From a virus (taxonomy: Duplodnaviria > Caudoviricetes): 55,007 bases of DNA. The position numbers and the translations under genes were made by a program. Where the stretch lies: positions 1 through 55,007 of the IMG/VR virus record IMGVR_UViG_3300027971_000062; one strand, written 5' to 3'. This document shows positions 250 through 43,909 of this stretch, one piece after another. Every line of letters begins with the position of its first letter. Positions within the stretch are counted from its first letter, which is position 1. The notes below the pieces were generated by a model. The model saw only the letters and a list, made by a program, of their open reading frames with translations, was not told the DNA's origin and did no database searches.

Positions 250-1461
250 ATGTCGATCATGTTTGTAAACCCAGCCGGCCACCGTAAGCGCGCCTCCAAG
301 AAGAAGCGCAAGCTCACGCACATTCTGAGGAGAAACCCCATGGCCGGCAAGAGCAAGAAGAAGGGCAAGAAGTCGCCCGCGAAGAAGCCCGCGAAGAAGA
401 AGACCGCTGCGCGCAAGTCGCCCGCGAAGAAGCCAAAGAAGCGTCGTCCCTCGACGAAGAAGCAGCTCGCTGCGGCGCGCAAGCTCCTCGGCAAGCACGG
501 CTTCCGCGCCAAGCTGCGGACCAAGGTCGTCGCGGCTCGCGGCGCGAAGAAGGAGAAGGCGAAGGCTGCTCGCGCGGCTGCGAAGGACAAGAAGAGGGCG
601 GCTGCGTACCGCAAGCGGTCGGCGGCGGCGGCGAAGGCGCGCAAGGCAGCGGCCAAGGCGGCACAGCGGGCGATGGACATGTCGGCCAAGCTGATTCGCG
701 CCAACCCGTCGCGTCGTCGGCGGAAGCACAGCCCCGCGCGTCATCACCGCAAGCACACGCGGCGCTCGACCCGTCGCTACCGTCGCAACCCGGCTGGCGG
801 CGACATCATCAAGATGCTCATGGGCGCGGTCAAGATGGCGGCTCCCGCGGTCGGCGCGATGCTCGTCGGCAAGGCGCTCTCGACCCAGGCGATCAAGAAC
901 ATCCCGATGCTGTCGAAGGTCATGGGCTACGAGAAGCCCATCCTCGACGTTGCCATGCTGGTGGCGGTTCACTTCGGCGCCCCCAAGGTTCCGATGCTCC
1001 GCAAGTATCAGACCTCGATCATGGTCGGCCTCGGCGTGAACCTCATCGTGGACACCCTGTCGGCGGCGCTGCCGGCTGACATCAAGGGCAAGATCGGCCT
1101 GTCGGGCGACGGTATCTACGACCGCGCCCTGTCGGACTACGTCACGACCAGCGACTACCTCACGACCGGCGCCACGCCGATCGACGACGACATCGCGCTC
1201 GCGGACTACGTCACCACGGGCGACATCGAGGAGGAGCTCGGTATCTCCGAGGAGCTCGGTATCTCCGAGGAGCTCGGCGCGATCGACGCGCACACCGTCC
1301 GCGGTGGCGTCTCGCAGGCGGCGATGCTCAAGGCGATCCCGTCGCAGAGCTTCTCCGAGGAGATCCCCGCGCGCTCGTTCTCCAAGGAGATCAGCCACGC
1401 GGGCCAGGGGTTCGATAACCCGGGCGCCCTCTACGCTGGCATCTTCCGCGGCGGCTTCTAG
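250..1461 (+). CDS. Putative virion core/scaffold precursor: K/R/A-rich histone-H1-like N-terminus, hydrophobic middle, acidic repeat C-terminus
   Basis: KKSPAKKPAKKK and RKSPAKKPKKRR; RRNP, RANP, RRNP motifs; hydrophobic helices; DYVTT and EELG repeats; directly upstream of candidate capsid genes. Alternative start ATG 340 after GAGGAG. Confidence 0.75.
   Translation: MSIMFVNPAGHRKRASKKKRKLTHILRRNPMAGKSKKKGKKSPAKKPAKKKTAARKSPAKKPKKRRPSTKKQLAAARKLLGKHGFRAKLRTKVVAARGAKKEKAKAARAAAKDKKRAAAYRKRSAAAAKARKAAAKAAQRAMDMSAKLIRANPSRRRRKHSPARHHRKHTRRSTRRYRRNPAGGDIIKMLMGAVKMAAPAVGAMLVGKALSTQAIKNIPMLSKVMGYEKPILDVAMLVAVHFGAPKVPMLRKYQTSIMVGLGVNLIVDTLSAALPADIKGKIGLSGDGIYDRALSDYVTTSDYLTTGATPIDDDIALADYVTTGDIEEELGISEELGISEELGAIDAHTVRGGVSQAAMLKAIPSQSFSEEIPARSFSKEISHAGQGFDNPGALYAGIFRGGF
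1231..1277 (+). repeat. 18-bp tandem repeat GAGGAGCTCGGTATCTCC (about 2.6 copies) encoding EELGIS
   Basis: Units at 1231-1248, 1249-1266 and a partial unit at 1267-1277. Confidence 0.9.
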
Positions 1462-1564
1462 CTCCCGCTCCCCTGGACGTTGACGTGACCTCGGCGGGAG
1501 ACACCCGCCTGTCGTTCGACATTCCGCCGACGACGAACAGACAACAGGTAGCAGAGAGAGAACC

Positions 1565-2149
1565 ATGCCCCGCATTGCAAATGTCCGCGAGCGTCGTCAC
1601 CAGCCCTTCTGGGATACGCTCATCCGCACCACTGGCAACCCGACCGTGCCGCTCCAGAACAGCACCAACCTGTTCGGCAACAGCAACGTCGGTAACCTGG
1701 CCCTGACGAACCTCCAGGTCGCTGGTCAGCTCGCGAGCGATCAGACCTACGTCATCCTCGCGCTGCGCGCGTCGCTGTACTTCAACGGCACCAACCGCCG
1801 TGCGAACTACCTGCGCGTCAACTCGCAGCTCTACTGGACGCTCATCGTTGGCGAGAAGCCGATGTTCCAGGCCCCGTGCTGGTACTTCCCGGCGGGCGGC
1901 GGCGTGTGGGGCTTCGACGCGACCCCGGCGACCGGCTCGATCTTCGCGAACGGTGAGCCCAGCCAGGAAGCGATCCTCAAGCTGGCTCGGCCGATCGTCG
2001 TGCCCGTTCGCCAGAACTTCGCCGTGCAGGCGTCGTTCTACCCGATGGGCTCGGTCTCGGCGCTCGATGGCCTCAACAGTGGCGCCACCGACGACGAGAA
2101 GGAGATCAAATTTGTTTTGGATGGGTTGCAAACCCGAGATGTGCAGTGA
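1565..2149 (+). CDS. Candidate major capsid protein 1 (single jelly-roll type)
   Basis: 194 aa, beta-rich, strongly biased codons, purine-rich RBS; QPFWDT...LF...TNLQVAGQL...YVILAL pattern I associate with jelly-roll capsid proteins of tailless prokaryotic viruses; fold unverified. Confidence 0.6.
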   Translation: MPRIANVRERRHQPFWDTLIRTTGNPTVPLQNSTNLFGNSNVGNLALTNLQVAGQLASDQTYVILALRASLYFNGTNRRANYLRVNSQLYWTLIVGEKPMFQAPCWYFPAGGGVWGFDATPATGSIFANGEPSQEAILKLARPIVVPVRQNFAVQASFYPMGSVSALDGLNSGATDDEKEIKFVLDGLQTRDVQ

Positions 2150-2308
2150 TTTCGCGTACTTACGCGATTTCTACTGAACATAGCTGATCTGATCAGCCCC
2201 CGTCCCGGCGGGTAATCCGGCCCCTTCCCCTGTTCTCGTGAACCTGTCCCGCGCATCCGCGCGAGATCTTCCGCCCCTCAAAGGCGACCCCGACTACGGA
2301 GACCTTCC

Positions 2309-2944
2309 ATGAACGCGATCGAGCAGAACCTCCAGAAGCTGTCCGCGGCCCTCCGCATCCTCGACAAGCGCAGCGGTCAGCTCCAGGCTGTCGTCCAGCA
2401 GCAGGCCGCGATGCTGGCCGAGCTTCAGACGCGCCCCCGCACCATCACCGAGGAGATCGACCAGATCCCCGGTCGTCGCATCGAGACCGTGCTGTCGGGC
2501 GAGGTCGTCTTTGACGCGACCGACGAAGGCAAGCGCGGCAACCCGATCTTGATCCAGGTGAGCCAGGACGGCCCGTTCGTCATGACGCACTATCCGATGT
2601 GCCTCTGGCGTCCGACGCTCCCGACCACGGCGACGAACTATCAGCGGTGGCGTCCGATCTCGACCTACCCGCTGCCGGATCAGGTCGTCGATACGGACAT
2701 CATCGATATCCTGTACGAGCTCCAGGACGGCGGCTCGCAGCGCAACTTCCAGAACGCTCCTCGAGGCCCGCTGCTCTCGCGGCCCGACAACGTCATCCCG
2801 TGCGCGGTGCCGACGCTGTGGTCGCCCAATGCGGCGATTGCGTTCTATCCGACGTACAACGCGCTGACGTGGGACAGCGACACTCCTCCGACCCAGGGCA
2901 CCCTGCACGTCGATCTGATCGGGTATCGGATCGTCAACCTGTAA
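2309..2944 (+). CDS. Candidate second single jelly-roll capsid protein with N-terminal coiled coil
   Basis: 211 aa; GGAG RBS; heptad N-terminus, then IQVSQDGPFV...LQDGGSQRNF...LHVDLIGYRI beta pattern; adjacent to ORF 1565. Confidence 0.55.
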   Translation: MNAIEQNLQKLSAALRILDKRSGQLQAVVQQQAAMLAELQTRPRTITEEIDQIPGRRIETVLSGEVVFDATDEGKRGNPILIQVSQDGPFVMTHYPMCLWRPTLPTTATNYQRWRPISTYPLPDQVVDTDIIDILYELQDGGSQRNFQNAPRGPLLSRPDNVIPCAVPTLWSPNAAIAFYPTYNALTWDSDTPPTQGTLHVDLIGYRIVNL

Positions 2945-2948
2945 GCCC

Positions 2949-3224
2949 GTGAGCTACACCCACACACCTTCATCACTGTCGGCCTGCTGTAGCGGGTGCG
3001 CCGAAGGCGCATCGACGTGCAACAGCAGCGCGCCGCGCGCGACGATGGGCGACGTGTCGCTGACAAACCCGCTGATCTTGCTTGTCGGCGGTTACCTCGC
3101 GCTGAAGCTGCTTGGTCATCGCGCACGCAAGAAGCGAGAGCGCGAGTACAGGGCGTCCCATGACCGCATCCACGGCTCCGGCGCGTTCGATGCCCTGGAA
3201 GCCAAGCGTAGAGCCAGACGATGA
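2949..3224 (+). CDS. Small membrane protein with CCSGCAxGASxC motif
   Basis: GTG start; Cys cluster, TMGD, one TM helix, basic tail. Confidence 0.75.
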   Translation: MSYTHTPSSLSACCSGCAEGASTCNSSAPRATMGDVSLTNPLILLVGGYLALKLLGHRARKKREREYRASHDRIHGSGAFDALEAKRRARR

Positions 3225-3394
3225 GCTACGCCCGCGCGCCTTCGTCGCTGTCGTCCTGCTGTAGCGGGTGCGCCGGGGGCGCGTCGTCGTGCGCGAGCTC
3301 GACGCGCGGCCTGGGCGGCGTCAGCGTGCCGCCACTTTTTCCGTTCATATTCGTCGCGGCGATCCTGTTCGTCGTCACGAGGAAGAAGAAGTGA
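3221..3394 (+). CDS. Small membrane protein, paralog of ORF 2949 (57 aa, not in ORF track)
   Basis: Hand translation MSYARAPSSLSSCCSGCAGGASSCASSTRGLGGVSVPPLFPFIFVAAILFVVTRKKK; ATGA overlap with the upstream stop. Confidence 0.8.
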   Translation: MSYARAPSSLSSCCSGCAGGASSCASSTRGLGGVSVPPLFPFIFVAAILFVVTRKKK

Positions 3395-3396
3395 CC

Positions 3397-3990
3397 ATGG
3401 CGAAACCAACGACGGCTCTGGTCAGCAGGTCCGACGTGCAGCGCGCGAAGGTCGAGCTCGACCGGATGCGTGGGTCGCTCGCGAAGTGGCTCAAGTACCG
3501 CACGCTCAACGACGCGGTCCTCGAGGGCAAGGCGCCGACGAAGAAGCCGGTCGCGTTCGCGCGGTCGGTCATCGAGCAGTCGCGCGACATGACCGCGGAG
3601 GGCAACCTCGCGAAGCAGCTCTACGTCCTGTTGGCCGAGACCATGCCTGGCGTTGCGCTGCCAGAGCCCGATGTGACGCGGAACCCCCAGGCTGCGGTGC
3701 AACTCGCCCGCATCGTCGTCGAGGGGCCACCCGCAACCTCACCGGGCGCGCAGGGCGCCTGGTACACGGCGTGGCCCGTGCTGATCGTGGGCGGCTTGCT
3801 CCTCGCGGTGACCACGGTTGTTCGCACGCTGGCCGATGCCGCGGAGCGACGCGAGTACTACGCCTGCGTGCAGAGCGGTGCGTGCGCGGACGAGGGCAAG
3901 TGGCTCAAGTGGGGCGGCATCGCGGCGCTCGCCTACGTTGCCTGGCAGCTCGGCCTGGGCGAGCGCGTCAAGAAGGCGCTGAAGGGCTGA
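3397..3990 (+). CDS. Membrane protein with two TM segments (putative virion membrane protein)
   Basis: ATG 2 nt after the upstream stop; TM segments WPVLIVGGLLLAV and WGGIAALAYVAW. Confidence 0.75.
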   Translation: MAKPTTALVSRSDVQRAKVELDRMRGSLAKWLKYRTLNDAVLEGKAPTKKPVAFARSVIEQSRDMTAEGNLAKQLYVLLAETMPGVALPEPDVTRNPQAAVQLARIVVEGPPATSPGAQGAWYTAWPVLIVGGLLLAVTTVVRTLADAAERREYYACVQSGACADEGKWLKWGGIAALAYVAWQLGLGERVKKALKG

Positions 3991-4069
3991 CCCCTTCAGA
4001 TCGCCCATCGAGTGATCGTCGGTGACTCGGAGAAGCTCCGACGTGACCTCGATGGGCGATCTGAGGGGG
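3991..4069 (+). promoter_or_regulatory. 22-bp stem-loop covering the Shine-Dalgarno sequence of ORF 4078
   Basis: Arms 3991-4012 and 4048-4069 are complementary with one G-U pair; inner hairpin TCGGAG-AAG-CTCCGA. Confidence 0.7.
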
Positions 4070-4077
4070 AGCAGATT

Positions 4078-4452: not shown

Positions 4453-4454
4453 AC

Positions 4455-5129: not shown

Positions 5130-5139
5130 GAAATTCGCC

Positions 5140-5451: not shown

Positions 5452-5461
5452 CCTCCGAGGG

Positions 5462-5863: not shown

Positions 5864-5868
5864 CGGTC

Positions 5869-6762
5869 ATGTCGGTTGGCCTCCAGCGATGGGAAGCCGA
5901 TCTGGTCCGCTTTCGGCGGCGTATCGGCTTTGACTTTCGCGAGCCGGACGGATTCTCGCGCTATCTGATCGCCGCCTACAGCGATCATGCGAACGAGGAC
6001 GATCGACGACTGTTTGACAGCCTTCAGGTTCGGCGTGACTACGGGCTCTCCACCGTGGAGTACAGAAAGGCGTTCCAGACGTGGTTTGCTGCGATGGCTC
6101 CTCGCGGAATGATCTGCGCTCGAGGGTTGCATTCGTTGGCCTTCTCCCCAGGCGAAGACATCGCCGGCTCCGTGTTGTTCGGCAGGGAGGGAACGTACAG
6201 CAGCTACAGCATGAACCTATCCTTCGCCGTAGTCAGGTTCGCGACCGCATGGGTTACCGAGTTCTACCCGACGGTGACGAGGAGCTGGGCGAACGTCGCA
6301 TCGACGATCGATCGCAGGGCGTCAGATACGGTTGGAATGCAGATACGAACGACGCGGGATGAAGAGTTCGATGATCCATCGTGGTCCTCCCTGCCGAAGA
6401 AGACCCGGGACGCAATCATCGTGTCCCAGTGCCCCGTCGTGCTGGTTTCCCATCTTGACATGGAAGACCTTGTTGGACCTGGAGGCGACAGCGAGAGCGG
6501 CGACGTTATGGAAGCCGAGGTTCTTGCCAAGCAGTGCGAACCACGCTGTCTCAGGCGCGTCTTCGTTGCCTCTGCCTTGAACCGACTGGGCAAGCCTGTC
6601 TCGCGTGATGATGTCGAGAGGTTCGGACTTGCCTATCATCGATCGGTCAAAGGTGAGGCGGATGCGCGCCCGGTCGATGTGCTTCTTCATCCTTCCGTGC
6701 GGGCCGGATCTCGTCGGAGAAACCTACCGTCGCAGTGGTCCTGGTATGATGTGACACCATGA
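5869..6762 (+). CDS. Hypothetical protein, possible R-S-E ADP-ribosyltransferase fold
   Basis: ARG, YSSYSMNLSFAVVRFA and EAEVL in ART order; visibly lower GC than neighbours. Confidence 0.4.
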   Translation: MSVGLQRWEADLVRFRRRIGFDFREPDGFSRYLIAAYSDHANEDDRRLFDSLQVRRDYGLSTVEYRKAFQTWFAAMAPRGMICARGLHSLAFSPGEDIAGSVLFGREGTYSSYSMNLSFAVVRFATAWVTEFYPTVTRSWANVASTIDRRASDTVGMQIRTTRDEEFDDPSWSSLPKKTRDAIIVSQCPVVLVSHLDMEDLVGPGGDSESGDVMEAEVLAKQCEPRCLRRVFVASALNRLGKPVSRDDVERFGLAYHRSVKGEADARPVDVLLHPSVRAGSRRRNLPSQWSWYDVTP

Positions 6763-8180
6763 CTCGCAGGCCCAGGATCCACACGCTCGGCAACCAGACC
6801 CACAAGAACCCCTACGAGGTCCGCAGCGCGAGCGGCCTCGAGGGCGTGTACGCCAACGAGGGCGACGCCGAGTTCCACGCCGACGAGCTGCGCCGGTCGG
6901 GCGTTAGTGGCGTTGTCGTCGAGCGGCGCGTTCACCAGCGAGGCGGCATGGCGAGGTCGAACCCCACGGGCGACTTCGGCGGGCCTCACCCTGACTGGGC
7001 CGAGAGCAATGAGAACGCGGTGCGTGACGCGCTTGCGCGAAGCTCGACCAAGATTGCCGAGGTGTTGAAGCGTTACCCTGAGTCCGTGTCGTCGAGCGAC
7101 CGCGCGAAATATCGCAAAGACGGGCGCGAACGCGAGTCCTTTGAGCGCGCCGACTGGAAGCGCGTCTACGTGCTTACCGAGTACGGAATCGGTGATCCGT
7201 TCTCTCACGCCCACGTCTACCAGGCGTTCCAGAAGGCCGTCGAGCTCCTCAAGCGGACCACGGGCGAGGAGTGGATGTGGGACTCGATCAACCCTGGCAA
7301 GCAAGTGTTCGTGATGCTCGATCGCGAGCGTCGCAACCCCGCGGGCCTCACCGCGAAGGGCGAGCGGATGTACCGCCAGGTCAAGCGCGGCTACGAGGAG
7401 CGCGGCGAGCCCCGCGCTGCGGAGATCGCCTCGCGCACCGTCCTGTCTCGCGTTGGCAGCATCCCCGGCCTGAGGTCGAACCCTCCAGGTGCGCTCACCT
7501 CCGATCACCTCATGTTCATCGGTGCCTCACTGCGCGACGAGCTCGTCGAGGAGATTGACTCGACCGATTGGGACAACGTGGACCGCGACGGCGTGCTGTT
7601 CGCAGATCGGGCAGCGAAGGTCAAATCGTTGCTCCTGGGTGCGGCGAAGCAGGGCAAGGGGTTCGTGATCGACACGCGACGCCTCACCTCCAAGGACTAC
7701 GAGTTCCTGTCGGACAACCTCGAGGACGGCGTCGCAAGGAACATGAAGAACATCGCGGATTCGCGCGGGGTCGGCCTAGGCCAGATCGGTCGTCAGATCC
7801 GCGATTTTCGAGAGAGCATCGGCAGGTTCGGTGGAGTTCTGCCTGAGGAGAACCCCGCGCGCCGCACGAGGTCGAACCCTCCAGGTGCGCTCACCTACGG
7901 TCACTTCTACAGGACCGGGAGCCAGGACTGCGCCAACGTGATCAGCCTCGACGAGTTCGACCTGGACGGCGGCACCGCGGAGCAGATCGTGGCCGAGGCC
8001 ACGTCCGACTGGGACGACGACCTCGAGCGCGATTGGCGCAGCCAGATGGACGACGAGGACTTTGAGGGGCTCGACCCCCACGAAGCCTTTGAGCAGTGGA
8101 AGGCGGGCTGGCGAGCTCGAGCTACTCGCATCATCGCTGAGAGGCTCGAGGAGCGCAGAGACGAGGACGAGGACGAGTAG
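6759..8180 (+). CDS. Modular protein with six xxNP linkers (putative cargo polyprotein)
   Basis: HKNP, RSNP, RRNP, RSNP, EENP, RSNP separate segments; TATGAT 8 nt upstream of ATG. Confidence 0.75.
   Translation: MTRRPRIHTLGNQTHKNPYEVRSASGLEGVYANEGDAEFHADELRRSGVSGVVVERRVHQRGGMARSNPTGDFGGPHPDWAESNENAVRDALARSSTKIAEVLKRYPESVSSSDRAKYRKDGRERESFERADWKRVYVLTEYGIGDPFSHAHVYQAFQKAVELLKRTTGEEWMWDSINPGKQVFVMLDRERRNPAGLTAKGERMYRQVKRGYEERGEPRAAEIASRTVLSRVGSIPGLRSNPPGALTSDHLMFIGASLRDELVEEIDSTDWDNVDRDGVLFADRAAKVKSLLLGAAKQGKGFVIDTRRLTSKDYEFLSDNLEDGVARNMKNIADSRGVGLGQIGRQIRDFRESIGRFGGVLPEENPARRTRSNPPGALTYGHFYRTGSQDCANVISLDEFDLDGGTAEQIVAEATSDWDDDLERDWRSQMDDEDFEGLDPHEAFEQWKAGWRARATRIIAERLEERRDEDEDE
7472..7896 (+). 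repeat. Perfect 29-bp direct repeat GAGGTCGAACCCTCCAGGTGCGCTCACCT
   Basis: Copies at 7472-7500 and 7868-7896, both encoding RSNPPGALT. Confidence 0.9.
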
Positions 8181-8182
8181 CT

Positions 8183-8719
8183 ATGGCCCGCTGGCCGACG
8201 GGACCGTTCTCAACGCATCGCACCGGCTGCTACGGCTGCAAGCGCATGTCGTCAGCGGACGGCGGGTGCGGCGTCCACGGCTACCCCTGCACGCACTGGG
8301 GCATGGACCTGTTCGCGGGGTCTGACCGTCGCGTCGTCGCGCCAGAGAGCGGTGTGGTTGTCGCGGTCGCGAACGGGTCGTCGCCTCCCTGGTCGGGATT
8401 TGGCCCCGGCGTCGTCGTCATCCGGGGTGCCAGCGGCGTGTTTCACCTGTTGTCGCACCTTGAGTTCTCGTCGATCCAGGTTGGCGTCGGGCTTCCGGTC
8501 TCTGAGGGCACGCCGATCGGCCAGTACGACGCGCGCATCGCGCACACCCACTACGAGGTGAGGCGCAAGCTGACGGGTCCGTCTGCCGAGAACACGATCG
8601 ATCCCAGCGTCTGGCTCAAGGCCCAGGGCGGGTCGAGTGGCGGGCTCGGCAAGCTCGTGCTCCTGGCAGGGCTGTTCGGGGCCGGGGTCTACCTGTCTCG
8701 TCGGCTGTCACCCGCCTAG
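8183..8719 (+). CDS. M23-family peptidase with C-terminal TM anchor
   Basis: HWGMD (HxxxD), LSHL and HTHYEV (HxH); Gly linker, TM, RR. Confidence 0.85.
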   Translation: MARWPTGPFSTHRTGCYGCKRMSSADGGCGVHGYPCTHWGMDLFAGSDRRVVAPESGVVVAVANGSSPPWSGFGPGVVVIRGASGVFHLLSHLEFSSIQVGVGLPVSEGTPIGQYDARIAHTHYEVRRKLTGPSAENTIDPSVWLKAQGGSSGGLGKLVLLAGLFGAGVYLSRRLSPA

Positions 8720-8749
8720 CTTCGTCGGCTCCGTGATAGCCTGCGGGGC

Positions 8750-28563: not shown

Positions 28564-29001
28564 CTATTTCTTTCCGAGGTACCAGATCAGCCCGACAGCG
28601 CCGACGGCTGCAAGGAGAATCTGCGTCGTAGACATGCCCTTGACCACGTCCTTGCCGGATGCAGCCGCCGCCGCCGCCGCGCGCTTGGGTCGCAGCCCGC
28701 CACCAGTCGAGACGACGGCGGGTGGCGTGGCGTAGGGATCAAGCGGCTTGCGCGGGTCGGGGCCGCATCGGCCAGGTCCGAGCAGCACTTCGCCAGGACG
28801 AGCGCACTCCTCGGCAAACTCGATGTCGTCACCAAGCGTCGAGCCGGCCAAGCTCCCCAGCGTGCGCGCCAGGCCCTGCGACTCGAGGCCGGCGAGGGCG
28901 CGCTCGGAGAGCGGCACGTCCACGCGCCTAGGGTCCACCACGGGGGCGCCGCGCATGACGCGCGGCACGCTCTGAACGCCTGCCATGACGTGTCGCATCA
29001 C
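28564..29001 (-). CDS. Small protein with C-terminal TM
   Basis: TLGS and TLGD motifs; ends ILLAAVGAVGLIWYLGKK. Confidence 0.75.
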   Translation of the reverse strand: MMRHVMAGVQSVPRVMRGAPVVDPRRVDVPLSERALAGLESQGLARTLGSLAGSTLGDDIEFAEECARPGEVLLGPGRCGPDPRKPLDPYATPPAVVSTGGGLRPKRAAAAAAASGKDVVKGMSTTQILLAAVGAVGLIWYLGKK

Positions 29002-29624
29002 GAGAACAACCCCAGGTCAGAGTTATCGAGCTGCAAGTCGCTGTTGTCGAGGAGGTCGCTGATCTGCGACTCCTCCGGATCTGGTGTCGGTGGCGGGCTC
29101 GCCTGGGCCGACGGCACCTCGACCTTGCCCTTGTAGCTGCCGGCGTCGTAGGCGTCGTTGTAGCGATACCACTCGCTGGCAGTCGTCGGCGTAAACCCGA
29201 CGGGCACCGGAGCCTCCGCGGCAATCTGCTGGGTCGCCACGGGACGCGAGGCCGGCGCCGGGAGTGCGGTGGGTAGGGGCTCGCCAATCAGCTTGCTCAG
29301 ACCCGGCAGGTAGAGCTGGAGCAGCGACTGCGCCGCCGCAAGGCCGGTCCCGATCACGATCGGATGGTGATACTTGGCGAGAGCCTTGACGCGGTGAGCT
29401 CCGAGCCATGCAGCCGCGAACGTGCCGACCGCCGCGATGGCGCCCGCATGCTTGACCATGCTCGGGTAGCGACGAGCGATCTGAGAGGTGACCATCCGCG
29501 TTGCGACACGCGACGCCACGAACGCCGCGAAGCCAGGCAGCATGTACTCGACCACGTCCGTCGCCAGCGGCGGGTTGCGCTTGGGCTCGCCATGACGAGC
29601 GCGGAAACGTGCCAACTTGCTCAC
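28998..29624 (-). CDS. Membrane protein, partial paralog of ORF 250
   Basis: KRNP after a basic leader; WLGAHRVKALAKYHHPIVIGTGL aligns by eye with HFGAPKVPMLRKYQTSIMVGLGV. Confidence 0.75.
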   Translation of the reverse strand: MSKLARFRARHGEPKRNPPLATDVVEYMLPGFAAFVASRVATRMVTSQIARRYPSMVKHAGAIAAVGTFAAAWLGAHRVKALAKYHHPIVIGTGLAAAQSLLQLYLPGLSKLIGEPLPTALPAPASRPVATQQIAAEAPVPVGFTPTTASEWYRYNDAYDAGSYKGKVEVPSAQASPPPTPDPEESQISDLLDNSDLQLDNSDLGLFS

Positions 29625-34976: not shown

Positions 34977-35116
34977 GTGCGTACTGTTGTCAAAACACAC
35001 ACGAGGTGTCAAGGTTTTGCGACTTTGACTTTTTTCCGCGAGTGATCACGAGGCGTTGCGTCATACACCGTCGAGCCCAGTCACTCGTTGTCATACCGCT
35101 ATGCGAGCGTCTAAAC
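34977..35116. promoter_or_regulatory. Divergent control region between replication and recombination operons
   Basis: AT-richer gap; two TTGACA on the minus strand (34988-34993 and 35007-35012). Confidence 0.6.
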
Positions 35117-38090: not shown

Positions 38091-38723
38091 TCGCTCCTCG
38101 GCCCAGGTGACCGGGACCGGAGCGTCCCAGAAGTCGGGGGCGCCGAAGGCCGGCGGCGTGTGTCGCTGGCCGGCGTGGACGACGGTCATGTAGTCGAGCT
38201 CGGCGGGCATCCGCGCGACGCTCCCGTGATTGACGAACAGGAAGCCAGATCCAGGGTCTACGTGCTCGTTGAACGTGCGGCTCGCGTAGAAGTCCCAGGT
38301 GAACGCGACGGTGGCGTCGCTCACCCATCGGCTAGTGCGTAGGTCCGCGGTGATGCTGTTGAAGTAGAGCATCGGCGTGAACACGCACGCAGGGTGCTTG
38401 CCAGCCTCCAGGAACGCAACCTGTCGCGAGATCCTCGAGGGTCCGTGGTAGTCGTCGTCGTCCCAGAAGAAGTAGACCGCTCCTCGGTCGTTGAGGTGGC
38501 GCAACATCGCGTTGCGCTTCGTCGGCAGGTTGGTGCGCGGCCACACGAGCAGCTCGACCTCGGGCACACGGCAGGCATCGCAGAGCTGCACGCGCCGGTC
38601 CCCGTCGTCCACGATCAGGAGGTGCTTGGGGCCGGGGTAGTCCTGCGCCAGGAACAGGTGGACGGCTCGGTGAGCCATCTCGGGCCGGTTGAACGTCGGC
38701 AGGAGGGCGACCGCGCGCTTCAT
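38064..38723 (-). CDS. Glycosyltransferase family 2
   Basis: LLPTFNR, QDY, IVDDG, KRN, FWDDDDY...RISRQV. Confidence 0.88.
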   Translation of the reverse strand: MKRAVALLPTFNRPEMAHRAVHLFLAQDYPGPKHLLIVDDGDRRVQLCDACRVPEVELLVWPRTNLPTKRNAMLRHLNDRGAVYFFWDDDDYHGPSRISRQVAFLEAGKHPACVFTPMLYFNSITADLRTSRWVSDATVAFTWDFYASRTFNEHVDPGSGFLFVNHGSVARMPAELDYMTVVHAGQRHTPPAFGAPDFWDAPVPVTWAEERLALHEAQG

Positions 38724-41407
38724 GCGTCATCCGTGATCACCGCGACGTGCCCGGGGTCCACGATCAGCCACTTGCCGTTGACCAGGCCGAGGTTGCCGTC
38801 GTGGATGTCCCCAAAAAACACCCCGTCCTTGTCGAGAACCTTGATCATCCCGCGCATGAGCTCGCGCAGCTCGGGCACCTCCTCGCCCAGGAGCTTGGCC
38901 GCTTCGCGCCAGGCGTCGAGCTTGTCGTGCGCGGGCTTGCCCGCGATCAGCGCATCGTAGGCGCGCTGCGCGGCCTTGTGCTGCTTGGCAATCGCTGCAA
39001 ACGCCTTGGCGCGGTTGCCCTTGCGCGCCTTGATCGCGTCCATCAGGTTTCCGACCTCGTCAGCCGCCTGTCGCCAGAGCAGGTAAATGCCGTGCCCTTT
39101 GTACTTCTCGGGGAGCGTCACGGTCCTCCGGTACTTGACCACGATGGGTGCGCTGATGGTGCTTGCCAGGTCGTGCGCGAACTCGGCCTCGGTGTCGTCG
39201 GTCGTCAGCTTGAGCACAACGTCGGGATCGTAGGTAGGCAGGACGCAGCCGTAGCCACCGCAGCCGTATTCTTTCATTCGCGCGGCGACCTTGCGCCCGC
39301 CCGTTCCCTTGATCGATGCGATCTTGGGGAGCCACTTGGCGGGCACCTCTTCCTGCATGTCTTCGTAGTGCTTGGCGATCACCTTGGTGACCCAGCTACG
39401 GCTCGGGTTTTCCTGCGCTCCCGATCGTTCGTCCTCCTCGATGTCTCCGTAGACGGCGGGTTGCTCGGTCCTCCACACCGGATATCCTGGCGGCGAGACC
39501 GAGTAGAGCGTCCTCTCGGGGGCGTATCCAATTTGCTCTGTGACGATCGCTGACATGGCAACGGGTTCATGTCTCCCCGTATACGCCCCGTCGCCATCGG
39601 CAATCTTTCGCGCCCATGCGATGGCATCCTCGAAGGTCTCGACGTAATCGCCGTCTTGCCCGACTCCGCTATCGGGATCCAGCGCAATCACGGGGTATCC
39701 TACCCACAACTCTCCTTTCTCCGCGCTGGGCTCAAACGGGCCATACTCGTTGCGCGGCGGGTTCGCCTTGATGGTAGCTGTCGGTCGCATCAGCGCACGC
39801 CGCTCGCGCGTCACCATGAGTTGATCGTCCATCCACGGCTCGTATGCGGTCCCGACAACGTGACTCGGGACGATGTAGGCGTCGATGAACGCATCGCCAG
39901 CCGCCAACGGGCTCGGCACAGGCAGCGAGATCGGCGCAGGTAGCGACGGGATCGGAGCCTGAGCCTCCGCGAACGCGCGCTGGGCCTCGGCCTCCTCGGC
40001 CTCTGCCAGGCGAGCGTAGTGCTCCTCGAGCTCGTCCTCGTGCTGCTGGGCGTAGCGTTTCGCCTCGTCCGCAGCGAGGTTTTCCTCGTAGACGTAGGCG
40101 GGAAGCCTGAACCTCGCGTCTGCCTCGCGAGCTGGGCTGGTGTCGTTGAGGGCCTCGAGGTCGATGCGCTCGACGCAGTACGGCTTGCCCGCGGGCATCG
40201 CATACCAGACAGCGTCCGCGATCGTGCGAGCGGCGCGATCGCCGGTCAGGCTGTACTTGTGGTTGATCGCGTCGAACTCGGACGCGCCGACCTGATAGTC
40301 CACGCCTCCGTAGTTCTGGATGAGCTCTTGATTCTCGTCAAGGAACCGCTTGAGCGCATCGCTGCGCGATGGATAGCAGAGCTGGTCCTTGGGGACCGGA
40401 CGGTTCCACCATCCAGCGGGAGGCTTCGGCAGGACCGAGGGCCGAGAAGCGCGAGGCTCACGCTTGGGCAGCTTGACGAGGAGGCGACCGGATTCCTCGC
40501 CCTTGAGCTCCTCGGCGTCGAGGCCGATCAGTCGCAGCGACTTGATGATCGTGGCAGCGTCTGCCAGCGGCGCAACCTTCGCGACGAACTTCCCTCCGCG
40601 CGCCGGGGTCAGGTCGATTGTGCCGAGGCCAGGCTCGCTCACCGCGGATTCGACCTTGGCGACCTCGGCAGAGGTCAGGTCGATGCGCTTGCGCGCGGGG
40701 TTCCCCGTTGCCAGAGGACCGTCTCCCAGCGCGGCGTCCTGTAGCCCGCGGTACTCCTGGCGCGCGGCCCGATACGCCGTGAGCTCGCGCGGGAACAGGC
40801 TGCTCTCGAGCAGCGTCATCCCTCCGCGGCTGCGATCTTTCACGTCGCCACCGCGGCTGACAGTCAGGAACCCGCCGGTCCTGCGGATGTAGACGCGCGC
40901 CCCCACCCCTGGCTTGCCCCAAGCCTTCGCCTCGACGCCGTGCTTGTTCATGGTCGTCGCCAGCAGGTTGGCGAACGTCATGGCCTGGTCGAAGTCATTT
41001 GAGGACGGGTTGGCGCGCTGCTCGTCGCGCGCCAGGATGACCGCGACCGTGCTCTCGTCCCGCAGGCCGGAACGCAAAGGTCCGTACTTGACCGTCGCGG
41101 TGTAGGGCGCCTCTTCGGCCAGCGTGGTGAGGTCGAGGCCAGCCTCGTGCAGGACGACCACGACCTCGGGCTGATCGTGCATCTCGCCAATCGCCTGGCG
41201 CCCACCGTACTCGTCGAACAGGATCACGTCGGCCACGAGATCGAACCCGACGACCTCGGAGCCATGAACGACGCGCACGCTCGGCGTGCCAGCGCGAACC
41301 ACCCTGGTCAGGGCATCGTCGAGCGCCGCCTCAAACGAGGCGTGCTCGGGGACCAAGTCGCCATCTCCCTCGTCAACGTAGAAGGCAAGATCCTCTGCAT
41401 CGATCAT
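38720..41407 (-). CDS. Modular protein with four xxNP linkers and a C-terminal protein-kinase-like domain
   Basis: RANP, TGNP, KANP, QENP; the last module has YGCGGYGCV, VLKLT, DIHDGN and IVDPG. Confidence 0.8.
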   Translation of the reverse strand: MIDAEDLAFYVDEGDGDLVPEHASFEAALDDALTRVVRAGTPSVRVVHGSEVVGFDLVADVILFDEYGGRQAIGEMHDQPEVVVVLHEAGLDLTTLAEEAPYTATVKYGPLRSGLRDESTVAVILARDEQRANPSSNDFDQAMTFANLLATTMNKHGVEAKAWGKPGVGARVYIRRTGGFLTVSRGGDVKDRSRGGMTLLESSLFPRELTAYRAARQEYRGLQDAALGDGPLATGNPARKRIDLTSAEVAKVESAVSEPGLGTIDLTPARGGKFVAKVAPLADAATIIKSLRLIGLDAEELKGEESGRLLVKLPKREPRASRPSVLPKPPAGWWNRPVPKDQLCYPSRSDALKRFLDENQELIQNYGGVDYQVGASEFDAINHKYSLTGDRAARTIADAVWYAMPAGKPYCVERIDLEALNDTSPAREADARFRLPAYVYEENLAADEAKRYAQQHEDELEEHYARLAEAEEAEAQRAFAEAQAPIPSLPAPISLPVPSPLAAGDAFIDAYIVPSHVVGTAYEPWMDDQLMVTRERRALMRPTATIKANPPRNEYGPFEPSAEKGELWVGYPVIALDPDSGVGQDGDYVETFEDAIAWARKIADGDGAYTGRHEPVAMSAIVTEQIGYAPERTLYSVSPPGYPVWRTEQPAVYGDIEEDERSGAQENPSRSWVTKVIAKHYEDMQEEVPAKWLPKIASIKGTGGRKVAARMKEYGCGGYGCVLPTYDPDVVLKLTTDDTEAEFAHDLASTISAPIVVKYRRTVTLPEKYKGHGIYLLWRQAADEVGNLMDAIKARKGNRAKAFAAIAKQHKAAQRAYDALIAGKPAHDKLDAWREAAKLLGEEVPELRELMRGMIKVLDKDGVFFGDIHDGNLGLVNGKWLIVDPGHVAVITDDA

Positions 41408-41469: not shown

Positions 41470-41757
41470 ATGAACCTTGGACATGGGATCCGCAACGGCT
41501 ACGAGGACATCGAGGACATTGCGGATCCAGACGGGGTCGTCGCCGTGATCTCTCGGCGTCGTTCCAACGGCACGCTCTCGGTCGCGGTCTTCAAGGTCTT
41601 TGAGCGAGACGGCGTTCGCGAGAAGACCAACTTCTTCAACAGCCGTCACTTCCCGGCGGTTCGGCGTGTGCTTGAGATAGCCGAGCGGCGCGTGGCGGCG
41701 CTCGAGGCTGACGCCGCGCCCACGGCAGAGCGGTCGTCGAAGGCTCGCGCGCGATGA
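41470..41757 (+). CDS. Small hypothetical protein
   Basis: TAGTGT 6 nt upstream of ATG; ATGA overlap with the phosphatase. Confidence 0.65.
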   Translation: MNLGHGIRNGYEDIEDIADPDGVVAVISRRRSNGTLSVAVFKVFERDGVREKTNFFNSRHFPAVRRVLEIAERRVAALEADAAPTAERSSKARAR

Positions 41758-42326
41758 GTCGATGCCTCGCCTCGGACTGCGAGCAGCCCGCGAGCGAGGC
41801 AGGATTCTGCGTCACGCACGCCCAGGCACCAGCCGGGCAGCGCGGCGGGTGGGTGTCGGCGGCGCGGCGGAAGCCCTACGATGCCACGCCGGTCTCACCG
41901 CGGCTGTGGGTCGGGTCCGCGCCTCCCCTCGAGCGCGACCTCCCGACCGTGGACATCCTGGTCCTATGCGCCGCGGAGGTGCAGCCAGAGCGCATGGCGT
42001 TTCACGGTCAGGTTCTCCGCTGCCCGATCTCAGACGCTGCCCTGACGCCGGCCCAACTTGAGCTCGTCCTGAAGACCTCGGTCGCGGTCGCCAAGGCCAT
42101 CGTCGAGGGTAAGCGCGTCCTGGTGACGTGCGCCAAGGGACGGAACCGTTCCGCCCTGGTCGTCGCCTTCGCGCTGCATCAACTCACGACGATGGACGGT
42201 CGGCAGATCGTCGCCCACATCCGCAAGCAGCGTGGCGAGGCGTCGCTGCGAAACCGATGGTTCGTCGCGAAGATCCTTGAGATCGTGGGCGACGGACGCC
42301 CCAAGGTGCGACGCAAGCCGAGCTAG
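41754..42326 (+). CDS. Dual-specificity (CX5R) phosphatase with N-terminal Cys/His knuckle
   Basis: RLWVGS, PISD, VLVTCAKGRNRS, IRKQR. Confidence 0.88.
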   Translation: MSRCLASDCEQPASEAGFCVTHAQAPAGQRGGWVSAARRKPYDATPVSPRLWVGSAPPLERDLPTVDILVLCAAEVQPERMAFHGQVLRCPISDAALTPAQLELVLKTSVAVAKAIVEGKRVLVTCAKGRNRSALVVAFALHQLTTMDGRQIVAHIRKQRGEASLRNRWFVAKILEIVGDGRPKVRRKPS

Positions 42327-43909
42327 AACGGCTGCGTCAGGTGATGGATGATCGGCTCATGCCGTGGCGTCACGGCTGAGATCAACACGACGTTCTTGTC
42401 GTCGGGGTTCGGCTCGTATGCCGACTCCTTCGCGCCCTTGATGTAGATCGGCGTGACGAACGACAGCCTCTTGAGCTCGCCGCCCGCGCCGCGCCGCATC
42501 ATCATCTCCACCTGCTCGCCGCCGATGTCCATCAGCTCGTAGTCGGTCTCGGCGCCGCTGCGCTTGCCGCTGGGGAGCTTCCAGCGCAGCCCGACGCAGA
42601 CCCTGCCGGGATCGTTCGGACGAGCGTCGCTCAGGTCACCGTCAACGACCTTCATCACGTTGCCGCCGATCTTGAACGTCTTGGGCAGCGGGATCTGCTC
42701 CTGCGCCTTCTCGCCCTTCTTGAGCAGCGTCTGCCAGGTGCCGTCGTCTTTCTTGTACGCCATGAACACGACGGCCAGGCGTGAGTTGTAACGCTCGATC
42801 TCCTCGATCGCGTACTGCTCGTTCACGTCGGTGCCACTGAGCGAGAAGGTGAGGTCGTAGTTGTCCGGGAACTCGTGTCGCTTGCCATCGTGCATCCACG
42901 GAGCGCGACGACCCGGCACCTTGGTGTAGTCGTAGAACTGCAAGGGCTTGCCGTTCTCGCCCGACTTGCCCCGATAGTGATCAAAGAACCACGGAGCCAC
43001 GCGCTCCCACGGAATGTCCGACAGGACGTTCAGCCGGAACATCGGCGTGACTTCCTGCTTTGGATTGGGACGACGATAGAAGGTGCAGTCAACCATCCAC
43101 TTGTCGATCGACTCCATCAGCACGCGCATGAATGCGGTGGGCTGACCCAGGAGCGCGTGCGCTTGCGCGACCTTGCGATAGGTGTTGTACCGCTCGCTCG
43201 CGTTCTGGCCGGCGAAGATCAGGCACGAGTCACGGCACTCCTTGGAGCTGCCCTGGCACCAAGTGAACTTGGGGCCGATGCGCTGAGGCAGGCCAATCGC
43301 CGGATTCTTCCAGCGTTCCGCCATCCTGGCACCCTCAACGACCATCGCAGCCGTCGCCTCTTCAAACATTTTCGGCGTGTACGGGATCTTTTTGTCGTGC
43401 GCGCGACGCTTGATCTGCTCCTCCGACACGTCGAAGATGCGCTCGTAGGGGCCACGCCTCTGAGCCGCGAGCTTGGCGTGCGCCGCGGGGACCAGCGTGA
43501 CGCCCATGACCTCGACGGGCCTGTCCACGTCCTGGCTCGGCTTGAGCGTCTTGTAGTTCTGGCCGATCCAGGCGTCGGCCATGCCGATTGCGGTCTTGTA
43601 CTTGGTGACGATCTCGCCTCCTCTTTCCATGCCCGCGAAGTACGGCAGCAGGAGCTCGTGAGCCGTCTTGAGCGTCATGTTCATCACCGATGCCGCGGAG
43701 ATCGGAGACAACTGCGCGCTCGAGTAGGCAAGCTCGGCCATCTCCTCGGCAGTCGGCGCGTCCTCGGGGTTCGCCTCGGGCTCGTCGATCACCTGGACCG
43801 CGACCGGCCCACCGACCTTGCGCTGCACGAGGGCGAGCGCGCTCTCGGCGTCCTCCTCGAGGCCGAGGATCTTTCCGTCTGGTGAGATTGCAGCGTAGTA
43901 CGGCTTCAT
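42323..43909 (-). CDS. GP88-like (radical-SAM-related) phage protein with xxNP linkers
   Basis: WCQGSSKECRDSCL, RLNVLSDIPWE, FYDYTK, NYDLTFS, VVDGDLSD.R, VGLRWK; EANP after a ~48-aa leader and EPNP near the C-terminus. Confidence 0.75.
   Translation of the reverse strand: MKPYYAAISPDGKILGLEEDAESALALVQRKVGGPVAVQVIDEPEANPEDAPTAEEMAELAYSSAQLSPISAASVMNMTLKTAHELLLPYFAGMERGGEIVTKYKTAIGMADAWIGQNYKTLKPSQDVDRPVEVMGVTLVPAAHAKLAAQRRGPYERIFDVSEEQIKRRAHDKKIPYTPKMFEEATAAMVVEGARMAERWKNPAIGLPQRIGPKFTWCQGSSKECRDSCLIFAGQNASERYNTYRKVAQAHALLGQPTAFMRVLMESIDKWMVDCTFYRRPNPKQEVTPMFRLNVLSDIPWERVAPWFFDHYRGKSGENGKPLQFYDYTKVPGRRAPWMHDGKRHEFPDNYDLTFSLSGTDVNEQYAIEEIERYNSRLAVVFMAYKKDDGTWQTLLKKGEKAQEQIPLPKTFKIGGNVMKVVDGDLSDARPNDPGRVCVGLRWKLPSGKRSGAETDYELMDIGGEQVEMMMRRGAGGELKRLSFVTPIYIKGAKESAYEPNPDDKNVVLISAVTPRHEPIIHHLTQPF

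Follow-up and report, generated by a model that had tools for sequence, protein, structure and literature searches.

Why does a single dipeptide, asparagine-proline (NP), recur at segment boundaries in five proteins of one virus? A first-pass annotation of the 55,007-nucleotide stretch of DNA analyzed here (the window), from an uncultured, high-GC bacterial virus with many relatives, had listed 16 such motifs and read them as a cleavage or capsid-loading tag that lets unrelated effector domains be strung together, packed with a basic core protein, and delivered at infection. Translation of the five ORFs found 16/16 of these motifs in place, along with five NPs missing from the list (residues 7 and 390 of ORF250, 178 of ORF6759, and 202 and 282 of ORF42323). 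The observation is confirmed and its interpretation partly supported; in a literature search, no account of such an NP seam turned up. The five proteins are as follows.

250..1461, plus strand: ORF250 (P0001), with a basic Lys/Arg/Ala-rich N-terminal part, a membrane segment, and an acidic repeat tail; NP at residues 7, 29 (RRNP), 152 (RANP), 180 (RRNP), and 390 (bases 268-273, 334-339, 703-708, 787-792, and 1417-1422).
6759..8180, plus strand: ORF6759 (P0002), a mosaic in which five modules follow a short leader; NP at junction residues 17 (HKNP), 68 (RSNP), 193 (RRNP), 241 (RSNP), 365 (EENP), and 373 (RSNP) (bases 6807-6812, 6960-6965, 7335-7340, 7479-7484, 7851-7856, and 7875-7880); NP178 (bases 7290-7295) is an ordinary NP, not a junction.
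28998..29624, minus strand: ORF28998 (P0003), a short paralogue of the ORF250 membrane part; NP at residue 17 (bases 29571-29576, within KRNP at 29571-29582).
38720..41407, minus strand: ORF38720 (P0004), a mosaic whose last module has a protein-kinase fold; junction NPs at residues 133 (RANP), 236 (TGNP), 549 (KANP), and 667 (QENP) (bases 41006-41011, 40697-40702, 39758-39763, and 39404-39409).
42323..43909, minus strand: ORF42323 (P0005), in which a GP88-family region follows a small N-terminal module; NPs at residues 47 (EANP) and 501 (EPNP) (bases 43766-43771 and 42404-42409) conserved in a 57%-identical homologue from relative L002.

NP excess in five proteins

In the GC3-based gene set used for the chance test (67 ORFs, 15,477 aa), NP occurs 46 times versus 24.4 expected and is the second most over-represented dipeptide. 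The excess lies with the five ORFs (21 versus 3.68 expected); the remaining 62 contain 25 versus 20.8 expected and show no avoidance of NP, which counts against reading the dipeptide as a processing site. In residue shuffles (20,000 per protein), the NP counts of ORF250 (five) and ORF6759 (seven) were each reached by 0 of 20,000, and P values were 0.024 for ORF38720 (four NPs) and 0.020 for ORF42323 (four NPs). The enrichment holds for the five ORFs jointly but not for ORF28998 alone, whose single NP is not significant (P = 0.35). It extends to proteins of related genomes, for example, 404 NPs versus 77 expected in 137 representatives (50% identity or less).

As had been proposed, the signal lies at the protein level: NP is invariant, while the Pro codon (CCA, CCC, CCG, or CCT) and the flanking codons vary. 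The junction Asn codon is always AAC, and the only AAT-encoded NPs, residues 202 and 282 of ORF42323, are ordinary, non-junction NPs that are not conserved in the L002 homologue. All 16 junctions first listed hence share AACCC, which would suit a recombination site at AAC-CCN driving cassette exchange, and some seams read N-P-G-P, which would suit 2A-like ribosomal skipping of the peptide bond at N-P. We give a cause of either kind hardly any credence: the shared bases number only five amid variable flanks, AAC is the Asn codon expected at 67% GC, and the upstream peptide is conserved no further than two residues. The 2A "StopGo" peptides of eukaryotic viruses likewise separate polyprotein parts and have N-P in their motif, but they require the longer D-x-E-x-N-P-G-P, an upstream helix, and eukaryotic ribosomes, whereas here N-P alone is fixed; we know of no 2A peptide that functions on bacterial ribosomes.

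Asn-Pro as a seam between modules

A single pool of mosaic proteins includes both ORF6759 and ORF38720; its modules, of 40 to 300 residues, are gained, lost, and reordered among relatives, and close relatives differ by whole inter-NP modules. In relative L007, ORF6759 modules are replaced or missing at the NPs, and L001 lacks two inter-NP stretches of ORF38720, near residues 141-234 and 551-663; these differences support the claim that unrelated modules are strung together at NP. Within the ORF6759 family, 338/422 internal BLASTP homology starts fall at most 6 residues from an NP (random positions, 1527/8440, 18%), 258 of the 338 at offsets −2 to 0; in the ORF38720 family the count is 165/274 (random, 409/5480, 7.5%). 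Merging starts into junctions left NP at 59/101 (15.3 expected) and 30/73 (4.5 expected), and among junction-enriched dipeptides NP and those overlapping it rank highest. A set of 19 proteins holds 116 NPs versus 13.8 expected, and 14 proteins of the ORF38720 family hold 65 versus 20.2.

The same module follows differing upstream residues, yet always after NP: NP is present in 75/75 copies of the 48-residue module at ORF6759 residues 193-240. In ORF38720, all 13 aligned sequences keep N667 and P668. Basic or acidic residues had been reported before the motif. The ORF250 and ORF6759 families have basic residues there, the ORF38720 family acidic or polar ones, and none is common to all; only N-P plus a small residue (usually Ala, Ser, Pro, or Gly) is, with NP invariant and its neighbors variable.

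AlphaFold models of ORF6759 and ORF38720 place 10/11 NPs in linkers. The ORF6759 units are predicted at residues 19-56, 78-187, 199-230, and 400-472, with 6/7 NPs between them and NP178 in a hairpin turn within one; in ORF38720, 4/4 lie within or directly beside segments of pLDDT below 50. A kinase module does follow QENP in ORF38720: Foldseek matched this C-terminal part to the protein-kinase fold, at a best E of 5e-4 over about 210 columns. The GP88-like region said to follow EANP in ORF42323 is downstream of it, but its Pfam match (residues 204-440) starts about 155 residues away rather than directly after. By sequence comparison, then, Asn-Pro is a conserved seam at the N-terminal edge of interchangeable modules in ORF6759 and ORF38720, and in the models it sits in flexible linkers, fixed while modules and flanks change.

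ORF250 shows the same seam. Its residues 170-403 have 92 homologues, and in 83/92 NP stands immediately before the membrane domain; 6/92 start within that domain and 3/92 carry N-G or N-S instead. The 92 proteins hold 316 NPs versus 45.2 expected, and across a 35-row alignment neither N180 nor P181 varies. ORF28998, which matches ORF250-family genes in 7 loci, aligns with ORF250 from the NP through the membrane segment (BLASTP E 4e-4, single comparison), upholding the suggestion of a shared membrane domain after RRNP/KRNP. These alignments identify the NP seam as the joint of basic and membrane parts in both core-like proteins. ORF250 is basic, with a histone-H1-like composition, membrane-anchored, and encoded at a fixed position in a conserved particle operon, with a homologous gene in 50/52 metagenome loci. 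Some relatives (e.g., P0251, P0240, and P0193) carry arrays of Arg-rich repeats ending in NP. SPKK and AT-hook (Arg-Gly-Arg-Pro) turns lie in the DNA minor groove, and in the basic proteins Arg-x-Asn-Pro could act like them, aiding genome condensation and tethering cargo to the DNA. The repeats and composition agree with such a role, but it leaves unexplained the ORF38720-family seams, with their acidic or polar residues, the seam of the c4 protein described below, and module breakage at NP, and we regard it as very unlikely.

The linker positions would also suit structural punctuation, in which Asn-Pro forms a local Asx-Pro turn that closes one domain, opens the next, and insulates the folding of neighboring modules and is kept since shuffled chains without it misfold, with nothing reading or cutting it. 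NP also moves with the downstream module, because homology starts 0 to 2 residues before the Asn, and Arg-Arg-Asn-Pro-Gly before the membrane helix of ORF250 relatives could be a helix-start or positive-inside feature. We nonetheless consider this explanation improbable. Ordinary multidomain proteins are not known to rely on a single fixed dipeptide, NP is near expectation in the rest of the proteome, and NP after leaders of 3 to 6 residues or in NP-x(3-8)-NP pairs serves no folding role. The acidic C-terminal module of ORF6759 has NP in 0/48 protein-starting and 14/21 internal copies, so NP belongs to the joint rather than to that fold, which forms equally well NP-free when protein-initial. 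NP is missing from 7/21 internal copies of one module and 7/10 of another, which counts against a processing site.

NP also lies close to protein ends. It occurs within the first 12 residues in 56/260 proteins, as expected of trimmed propeptides, and is kept even behind leaders of only 3 to 6 residues, where there is nothing sizeable to separate and a tag fits as well as a cut site; close pairs, 3 to 8 residues apart, also occur. A short N-P-ending peptide might instead be a linear motif bound, without cutting, by one common partner (e.g., an inner-shell, membrane, or assembly protein), so that modules, leaders, and tails carrying it are recruited to the particle or to one cell site, multiple copies adding avidity. 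In keeping with this, single-module proteins retain a basic leader of 3 to 10 residues plus NP, NP density peaks in the first 25 residues with a second peak, from the ORF250 family, 11 to 15 residues from the C terminus, the ORF6759 family has two conserved leader types ahead of its first NP, and the Arg-rich arrays of ORF250 relatives end in NP. Docking is still an unlikely explanation in our judgment: two fixed residues offer very little to bind specifically, the residues before them differ in character (basic in two families, acidic or polar in the third), and ORF38720 and ORF42323 are encoded outside the particle operon.

The particle operon and candidate enzymes

Further genes of the particle operon and its surroundings bear on what might act at the seam.

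1565-2149 and 2309-2944 (within 1565..2944), plus strand: two small, highly conserved proteins, after ORF250 in relatives.
3268..3990, plus strand: cluster c4 protein, a conserved particle-operon protein with one conserved mid-protein NP (bases 3682-3687).
8183..8719, plus strand: M23 zinc peptidase (Pfam PF01551, E 1e-9), directly after ORF6759.
54553..55005, plus strand: start of a long coiled-coil protein (cluster c12), truncated by the record end.

The c4 NP precedes a conserved A-A-V-Q-L stretch in 16/18 members, with the two preceding residues variable; the cluster has NP at 5.7 times expectation, and relatives have a C-terminal anchor downstream of it. The most conserved particle proteins carry NP at or below expectation (0.6 times in three clusters), and seven small clusters have none, a pattern in favor of a processing site. 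The two small proteins (homologues in 42 and 33 loci, respectively) may form the shell; NP stands at 0.6 times expectation in both of their clusters and is not conserved, the window's Asn being variable in alignments A4 and A5, and they gave no family match and no solved-structure match. Neither the window nor its relatives yielded a recognizable gp21-like protease, portal, terminase, or HK97-type capsid gene.

About 7.3 kb of the particle operon is absent between the window ends, after the c12 start: in relative L007, bases 1-1902 correspond to window 53109-55007 and bases 9247-12171 to window 3-2928. The window therefore lacks a gene that relatives conserve in this operon, encoding a transglutaminase-like Cys-His-Asp enzyme. 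It is present in 13/13 loci extending more than 7 kb upstream and is the sole protease-like gene conserved there. Cys98, His136, and Asp153 are invariant, the family match is weak, with 4/12 members matching Transglut_core (PF01841; best E 2.2e-5, 25.1 bits, cut-off 23), and a profile search found no solved relative. The enzyme is a candidate NP-seam protease, though it could be a cross-linker or amidase instead. The M23 peptidase, whose gene adjoins the ORF6759-slot gene downstream in all 5 loci matching it and which has a C-terminal hydrophobic anchor in 5/5 members, most likely acts as a cell-wall hydrolase carried by the particle and is only a weak processing candidate.

Known systems and processing at the seam

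The closest known concept is that of the polyvalent proteins of phages and conjugative elements (Iyer, Burroughs, Anand, de Souza, and Aravind 2017, PMC5512222), for which that paper proposes domain release by proteolysis. Here too, many unrelated small domains share one mobile-element chain, mosaicism among relatives is strong, and one such gene lies within the late/particle operon. The passages covered give no fixed junction dipeptide, unlike the seam here; of the words searched for in the paper, "asparagine" appears 3 times, each in another context, while "proline" and "linker" are absent (PMC5512222). A module in ORF6759 relatives shares a weak match to ART-PolyVal (PF18760; P0007, E 5.5e-5, 24.4 bits, below the cut-off of 31.2; P0017, E 0.059), but the MuF, zincin-like peptidase, and helicase-methylase signature domains were not found in the window's proteins, and the seam here extends to a small particle protein and to a core-like protein with a membrane anchor.

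In T4, the prohead protease gp21 cuts the capsid-targeting sequences of internal proteins. The likeness is one of analogy: a short N-terminal leader precedes unrelated cargo, and one site code serves many head proteins, but the T4 code is Leu/Ile-x-Glu rather than N-P, and its leader is N-terminal only, whereas seams here also fall between modules. Adenovirus, with core proteins pVII and pX/mu and a cysteine protease, and ASFV, with polyproteins cut at Gly-Gly-X, resemble this virus in three respects: short site motifs repeat within a basic, DNA-associated core protein, the particle genes include one for a cysteine-type enzyme, and several particle proteins use one site code. Their cleavage sites differ from N-P, adenovirus has the adenain signature where the candidate here is transglutaminase-like, and the core-like protein here is membrane-anchored.

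The NP pair looks like a cut-here or dock-here mark, though cleavage or capsid loading there would be an inference from sequences and models. We lean toward a processing site, at somewhat less than an even chance, with chains cut posttranslationally at or beside N-P, most simply between the two residues, which would leave an N-terminal Pro on each released module. The cut would be made either by an enzyme of the virus or through attack of the Asn side chain on its own peptide bond. Asparagine peptide lyases do cut N-P (FlhB/YscU at N-P-T-H, reovirus mu1 at Asn42-Pro43), so the scissile pair would be the same and a separate protease unnecessary. In those proteins, however, the site lies in a conserved folded Asn-activating domain, unlike linkers beside unrelated modules, and no homology to either family was found. 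Known Asn-driven self-cleavages require a folded site, which argues against self-cleavage here; peptides break spontaneously at Asn-Pro only slowly, over a time on the order of months, and cuts before Pro are rare among peptidases. Of the proteins proposed to form one virion cargo system, ORF250 and ORF6759 are encoded in the particle operon, but ORF38720 and ORF42323 lie in the accessory/replication region, which counts against that proposal and against processing too. The differing residues before NP, the lone NP of ORF28998, and the ordinary NPs of ORF42323 (two) and ORF6759 (one) also speak against a single cargo system. If the seam is cut, it would free leader peptides and pieces of the basic core along with small effector modules, and for ORF250 and ORF6759 this would occur during particle assembly, in a manner functionally like the maturation systems of adenovirus or T4.

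Asn-Pro at the joints of mosaic proteins

The Asn-Pro dipeptide (NP) is overrepresented in the 55,007-base record, which has a GC content of 67%. In our own GC3-based gene set, 46 NPs were observed and 24.4 expected. The five ORFs in which the first-pass annotation had reported recurring xxNP motifs (named here by start or lower coordinate) hold 21 of them (3.68 expected), compared with 25 (20.8 expected) in the other 62 ORFs, and all 16 motifs that it listed were present at their positions in the translated ORFs. Across 20,000 shuffles, ORF250, a basic membrane-anchored core-like protein (5 NPs), and ORF6759, a mosaic chain of modules (7 NPs), lay above every shuffle; ORF42323 and ORF38720, the latter a second mosaic chain, reached P = 0.02, and ORF28998, a short paralogue of ORF250 with 1 NP, was not significant taken alone. 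Chance as the source of the NP excess is ruled out by these shuffles together with the family counts.

ORF6759 strings several unrelated domains into one chain, a short leader followed by five modules. Eighteen relatives were found in a search of 5.8 billion proteins, most of them sharing just one or two stretches of 40 to 100 residues at no more than 82% identity; compared with one another, they are built from a few of the same modules in varying order and number, with N-P at every joint. These 19 family proteins contain 116 NPs (13.8 expected), and about half of their Asn residues precede Pro. Internal BLASTP homology starts within 6 residues of an NP in 338 of 422 cases, 258 of them at offsets −2 to 0, compared with 18% of random positions; homology ends are less sharp than starts (199/400). 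With starts merged into junctions, an NP is near 59 of 101 (15.3 expected), and the most enriched dipeptides at these junctions are NP and those overlapping it. Residue counts over 109 seams in 18 proteins (near-identical P0006 left out) gave R 35, K 14, Q 11, and H 9 at position −2; R 26, S 24, and Q 12 at position −1; and A 35, S 15, P 13, and G 10 after the Pro, with no conservation upstream of position −2.

The pattern extends well beyond these relatives. With ORF6759 as query, an exhaustive HMMER search of 1.84 billion representatives returned 189 clusters (E ≤ 0.001); in all 150 of those listed, the best match to ORF6759 is a stretch corresponding to one or two modules, and 137 new sequences from the 150 hold 404 NPs (77 expected). 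The 48-residue helical-hairpin module (ORF6759 residues 193-240) carries NP in 75 of 75 copies and the small N-terminal module in 36 of 37. The acidic C-terminal module carries it in 0 of 48 copies at the start of a protein and in 14 of 21 internal copies, along with six copies preceded by a leader only a few residues long. The exception is module 68-192 of ORF6759, for which 7 of 10 internal copies have no NP. By these copies, NP is a property of the joint and not of a fold. Many single-module proteins start with 3 to 10 mostly basic residues followed by NP, which falls within the first 12 residues of 56 of 260 proteins, and comparison of ORF6759 with the related locus L007 shows one module replaced and another dropped, both at NPs.

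Several further features of this family were noted. In ORF6759 relatives (e.g., P0010-P0020, P0044, and P0085), conserved leaders of two types stand ahead of the first NP: one of about 20 residues starting M-K-Y-P-K-A-G-D-L-Q-R, and one, which the window's ORF6759 also has, containing I-P-M-L-G or I-H-T-L-G. Both look like targeting or propeptide sequences. One shuffled module of P0009-P0012 has a match (E 2e-7 and 9e-7 in the two scanned) to PF22277, an encapsulated-ferritin-like family known from protein-shell cargo. In two more distant relatives, mosaic genes in the ORF6759 slot (L050 16080-17756 and L052 17157-18434) have a receiver-like stretch after an NP that by eye is of the response-regulator type. 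A gene split exactly at a seam between L052 and L050 was ruled out, as neither ORF breaks there. Single modules gave no match above chance in family searches, and Pfam returned none for ORF6759 or ORF38720, whole or module by module.

ORF38720 has 13 relatives, and they are as mosaic as the ORF6759 family. NP is again in excess (65 versus 20.2 expected), and homology starts lie near it in 165 of 274 cases, compared with 7.5% of random positions. The kinase-fold module of ORF38720, recognized by Foldseek, begins with N-P every time, and neither N667 nor P668 varies among 13 sequences (P0031, a near-copy of P0030, left out). Most ORF38720 relatives have as their N-terminal module the acidic C-terminal module of ORF6759, and both genes therefore share one module pool. 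The homologue in locus L001, 83 to 95% identical in the common parts, is without the stretches around residues 141-234 and 551-663, both between NPs, and has an additional N-terminal module attached via NP; in P0024, the second module is at another location. Between ORF42323 and its L002 homologue (57% identical), NP47 and NP501 are conserved, with one of them displaced by several residues at most, while NP202 and NP282, inside the GP88 region, are not. Next to ORF38720, a dual-specificity phosphatase-like gene (41754-42326, opposite strand; PF00782, E 5.8e-8, just below cut-off) adjoins the kinase-fold module, and a family-2 glycosyltransferase gene (38064-38723) overlaps ORF38720 by 4 bases; all three genes are kept in L001 and L002.

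Predicted structures agree with the reading of the motifs as segment boundaries in the first-pass annotation, since 10 of 11 NPs in two models lie outside folded domains. The AlphaFold model of ORF6759 (mean pLDDT 61) has folded units at 19-56, 78-187, 199-230, and 400-472, with NPs 17, 68, 193, 241, 365, and 373 between them and NP178 in a hairpin turn within a unit; Foldseek found no match to this model at E 0.001 or better. ORF38720 (mean pLDDT 72) has at least five folded units, and all four of its NPs are in or directly beside segments of pLDDT <50, which include 132-135, 229-242, 503-567, and 647-666. N-P is a conserved seam in the linkers where modules are exchanged.

The seam in a membrane-anchored basic protein and its operon

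The seam of the mosaic proteins also joins parts of a conserved membrane-anchored basic protein. Among 92 homologues of ORF250 residues 170-403, NP immediately precedes the membrane segment in 83, mainly as R-Y-R-R-N-P-G; six start inside the domain, and three have N-G or N-S. N180 and P181 never vary in an alignment of 35 rows, which used 34 of the 92 homologues, and the alignment of ORF28998 with ORF250 spans the NP through the membrane part. The family holds 316 NPs (45.2 expected). One lies at residues 4 to 9 in 23 of the 92 homologues, including 17 of the 44 with at least 330 residues (some relatives have N-G there instead), and one is among the last 20 residues in 48. A Tat-type twin-arginine signal for Arg-Arg-Asn-Pro was rejected by eye, given that charged residues follow and that soluble modules share the seam. 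Some ORF250 relatives carry arrays of Arg-rich repeats, each terminated by NP, and a DNA-hook role, comparable with that of SPKK and AT-hook motifs, may be an added function in the basic proteins; in the ORF38720 family, the residues preceding NP are mostly E, D, N, Q, T, and S, not basic.

A metagenome scan with the ORF250-family alignment yielded 52 loci, across which gene order is conserved.

Gene order of the particle operon in relatives (coordinates are those of the window homologues)
Upstream of ORF250 homologue: coiled-coil protein, ~560-610 residues
Upstream of ORF250 homologue: transglutaminase-like protein, 176-210 residues
Upstream of ORF250 homologue: several C-terminally hydrophobic-anchored proteins
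ORF250 homologue
Homologue of 1565-2149
Homologue of 2309-2944
Homologue of 3268-3990
Homologue of 4012-4452
Further downstream: variable mosaic gene in the ORF6759 position
Further downstream: M23 peptidase
Further downstream: fibre-like protein

ORF6759 lies within this operon and ORF38720 outside it. By gene position, the proposal that the NP-bearing proteins are virion cargo is compatible with ORF250 and ORF6759 but not with ORF38720 and ORF42323. NP content differs among operon families: 8.9 times expectation for ORF250, 5.7 times for 3268-3990, 2.0 to 2.6 times for three others, 0.6 times for the two most conserved small proteins and the coiled-coil protein, and zero NP in seven small families. 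The 3268-3990 family keeps one NP in 16 of 18 members, with variable preceding residues; the window NPs of the two conserved small proteins (1565-2149 and 2309-2944) fall in variable alignment columns.

The window encodes an integrase, a RecE-like exonuclease, an O/DnaD-like replication protein with a DnaC/IstB-like ATPase, a PAPS reductase, a DNA methylase, glycosyltransferases, an SLT lytic transglycosylase, and an M23 peptidase, which is the gene complement of a temperate virus of bacteria. Scans of 40 window proteins revealed no terminase, no portal, and no known capsid family, in part because the record is incomplete. L007 bases 1-1902 match window 53109-55007 and L007 bases 9247-12171 match window 3-2928, so that about 7.3 kb of the particle operon (L007 1903-9246) is absent between the window's ends; this stretch carries the rest of the coiled-coil protein gene, the transglutaminase-like gene, and several anchored-membrane-protein genes. 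In the conserved operon itself (window 250-13514 and loci L007-L058), we saw no terminase, portal, HK97-type capsid, or Walker-A ATPase, and a C-terminal hydrophobic anchor is present in 14 of 16 members of one operon family and 13 of 18 of another. These features point to a particle that contains a membrane and may have no tail. Between the replication and recombination genes, at 34967-35584, lies the gene for an HNH endonuclease with a helix-turn-helix tail; one homologue sits within the L031 particle operon, and the HNH gene may therefore be mobile, of the homing type.

Megablast with bases 1-20000 found no relative among deposited phages, nor did tblastn match ORF6759, ORF250 (whole or C-terminal part), or the 1565-2149 protein there. 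A scan of viral contigs gave no relative of ORF6759 and two loci for ORF38720, and a genome-contig scan gave only four metagenome-assembled contigs, labelled Peribacteria, Sandaracinus, Gemmatimonadota, and Brocadiaceae. Of 10 particle-operon proteins from relatives, 9 had no match in PHROGs, and profile searches of the two candidate shell proteins (1565-2149 and 2309-2944) and the transglutaminase-like protein against solved structures gave nothing better than E 0.3. For the 1565-2149 protein, the protein atlas pointed only weakly (scores 0.76-0.78) to PM2/PRD1-type coat families.

A candidate enzyme and the reading of the seam

Two protease-like genes were found in the conserved operon, those for the transglutaminase-like protein (e.g., L007 3360-3890) and the M23 peptidase, the latter more likely a cell-wall hydrolase. 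All 13 loci that reach more than 7 kb upstream have the transglutaminase-like gene. Across 12 aligned rows, Cys98, His136, and Asp153 do not vary, and they form the Cys-His-Asp triad of the transglutaminase superfamily in Transglut_core arrangement; PF01841 (Transglut_core) matches P0267 above cut-off and reaches E ≤ 0.01 in 4 of 12 members. The protein is a candidate seam-cutting enzyme. In L020 (1839-3347), the gene carries an insertion of about 300 residues right at the catalytic Cys, with ends that by eye are intein-like (its first residue is Cys, and its closing Ser-Asn is followed by another Cys).

T4-type systems remove an N-terminal leader at Leu/Ile-x-Glu with a gp21-family prohead protease. 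Our seams are instead preceded by R/K/Q/H then R/S/Q, or by acidic or polar residues, then N-P, and no prohead protease family member was found among the 40 window proteins and 18 relatives' proteins scanned. Asparagine peptide lyases (FlhB/YscU, reovirus mu1) have their scissile N-P bond inside a conserved folded autoproteolytic domain, whereas 10 of the 11 NPs in the two models are in linkers between unrelated units, and no family match was obtained. The 2A/StopGo peptides have a conserved D-x-E-x-N-P-G-P and an upstream helix; nothing is conserved beyond position −2 in our seams. The junction Asn is AAC throughout, with variable Pro codon and flanks, and a DNA-level or ribosome-level cause of the seams is unlikely; we infer that the seam is read after translation.

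The nearest known concept is that of polyvalent proteins (Iyer et al. 2017, PMC5512222). ORF6759 and ORF38720 resemble them in being multi-domain chains and in the strong variation of domain order and content between relatives. For the signature domains of the class (ART-PolyVal, MuF, zincin-like peptidase, methylase-helicase, and others), Pfam gave no match in either protein; ART-PolyVal matches two ORF6759 relatives only, both below the curated cut-off. The main text of PMC5512222 contains neither "proline" nor "linker" and has "asparagine" three times in other contexts; our literature search, which covered that main text, found no description of such NP seams.

Processing at the seams is the most likely reading, though we hold it tentatively. 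In its favour, leaders are short, some NPs come in close pairs, a single code serves unrelated proteins of one virus, and a Cys-His-Asp enzyme is conserved. The same joints might serve as docking tags that are never cut, which we consider improbable, or be structural punctuation alone, as the position of NPs between folded units would allow; that, too, has a low probability. A more specific form of the processing reading, possible but doubtful, is that N-P is a maturation site code in a large, entirely uncultured lineage of bacterial viruses whose particle proteins are membrane-anchored and in which no terminase, portal, or HK97-type capsid is recognizable. The transglutaminase-like enzyme, or the Asn itself, would cut at every seam in the membrane-anchored polycationic core protein, the leader peptides, and the chains of small effector modules, and each released piece would begin with Pro.

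If this maturation reading is true, bacterial viruses would have a counterpart to the core proteins and protease of adenovirus, and its two-residue code would make effector modules freely exchangeable. Should cutting occur at the seams, a viral polyprotein code would need no more than two residues and could be carried from one unrelated module to another, which would explain the free shuffling of small effector domains in these viruses. Cutting would also allow hundreds of unannotated mosaic proteins to be divided by a simple rule into working units, ORF6759 alone accounting for 189 representative clusters, and would indicate both a maturation enzyme and a DNA-core protein in a viral lineage whose particle genes belong to no family known so far.
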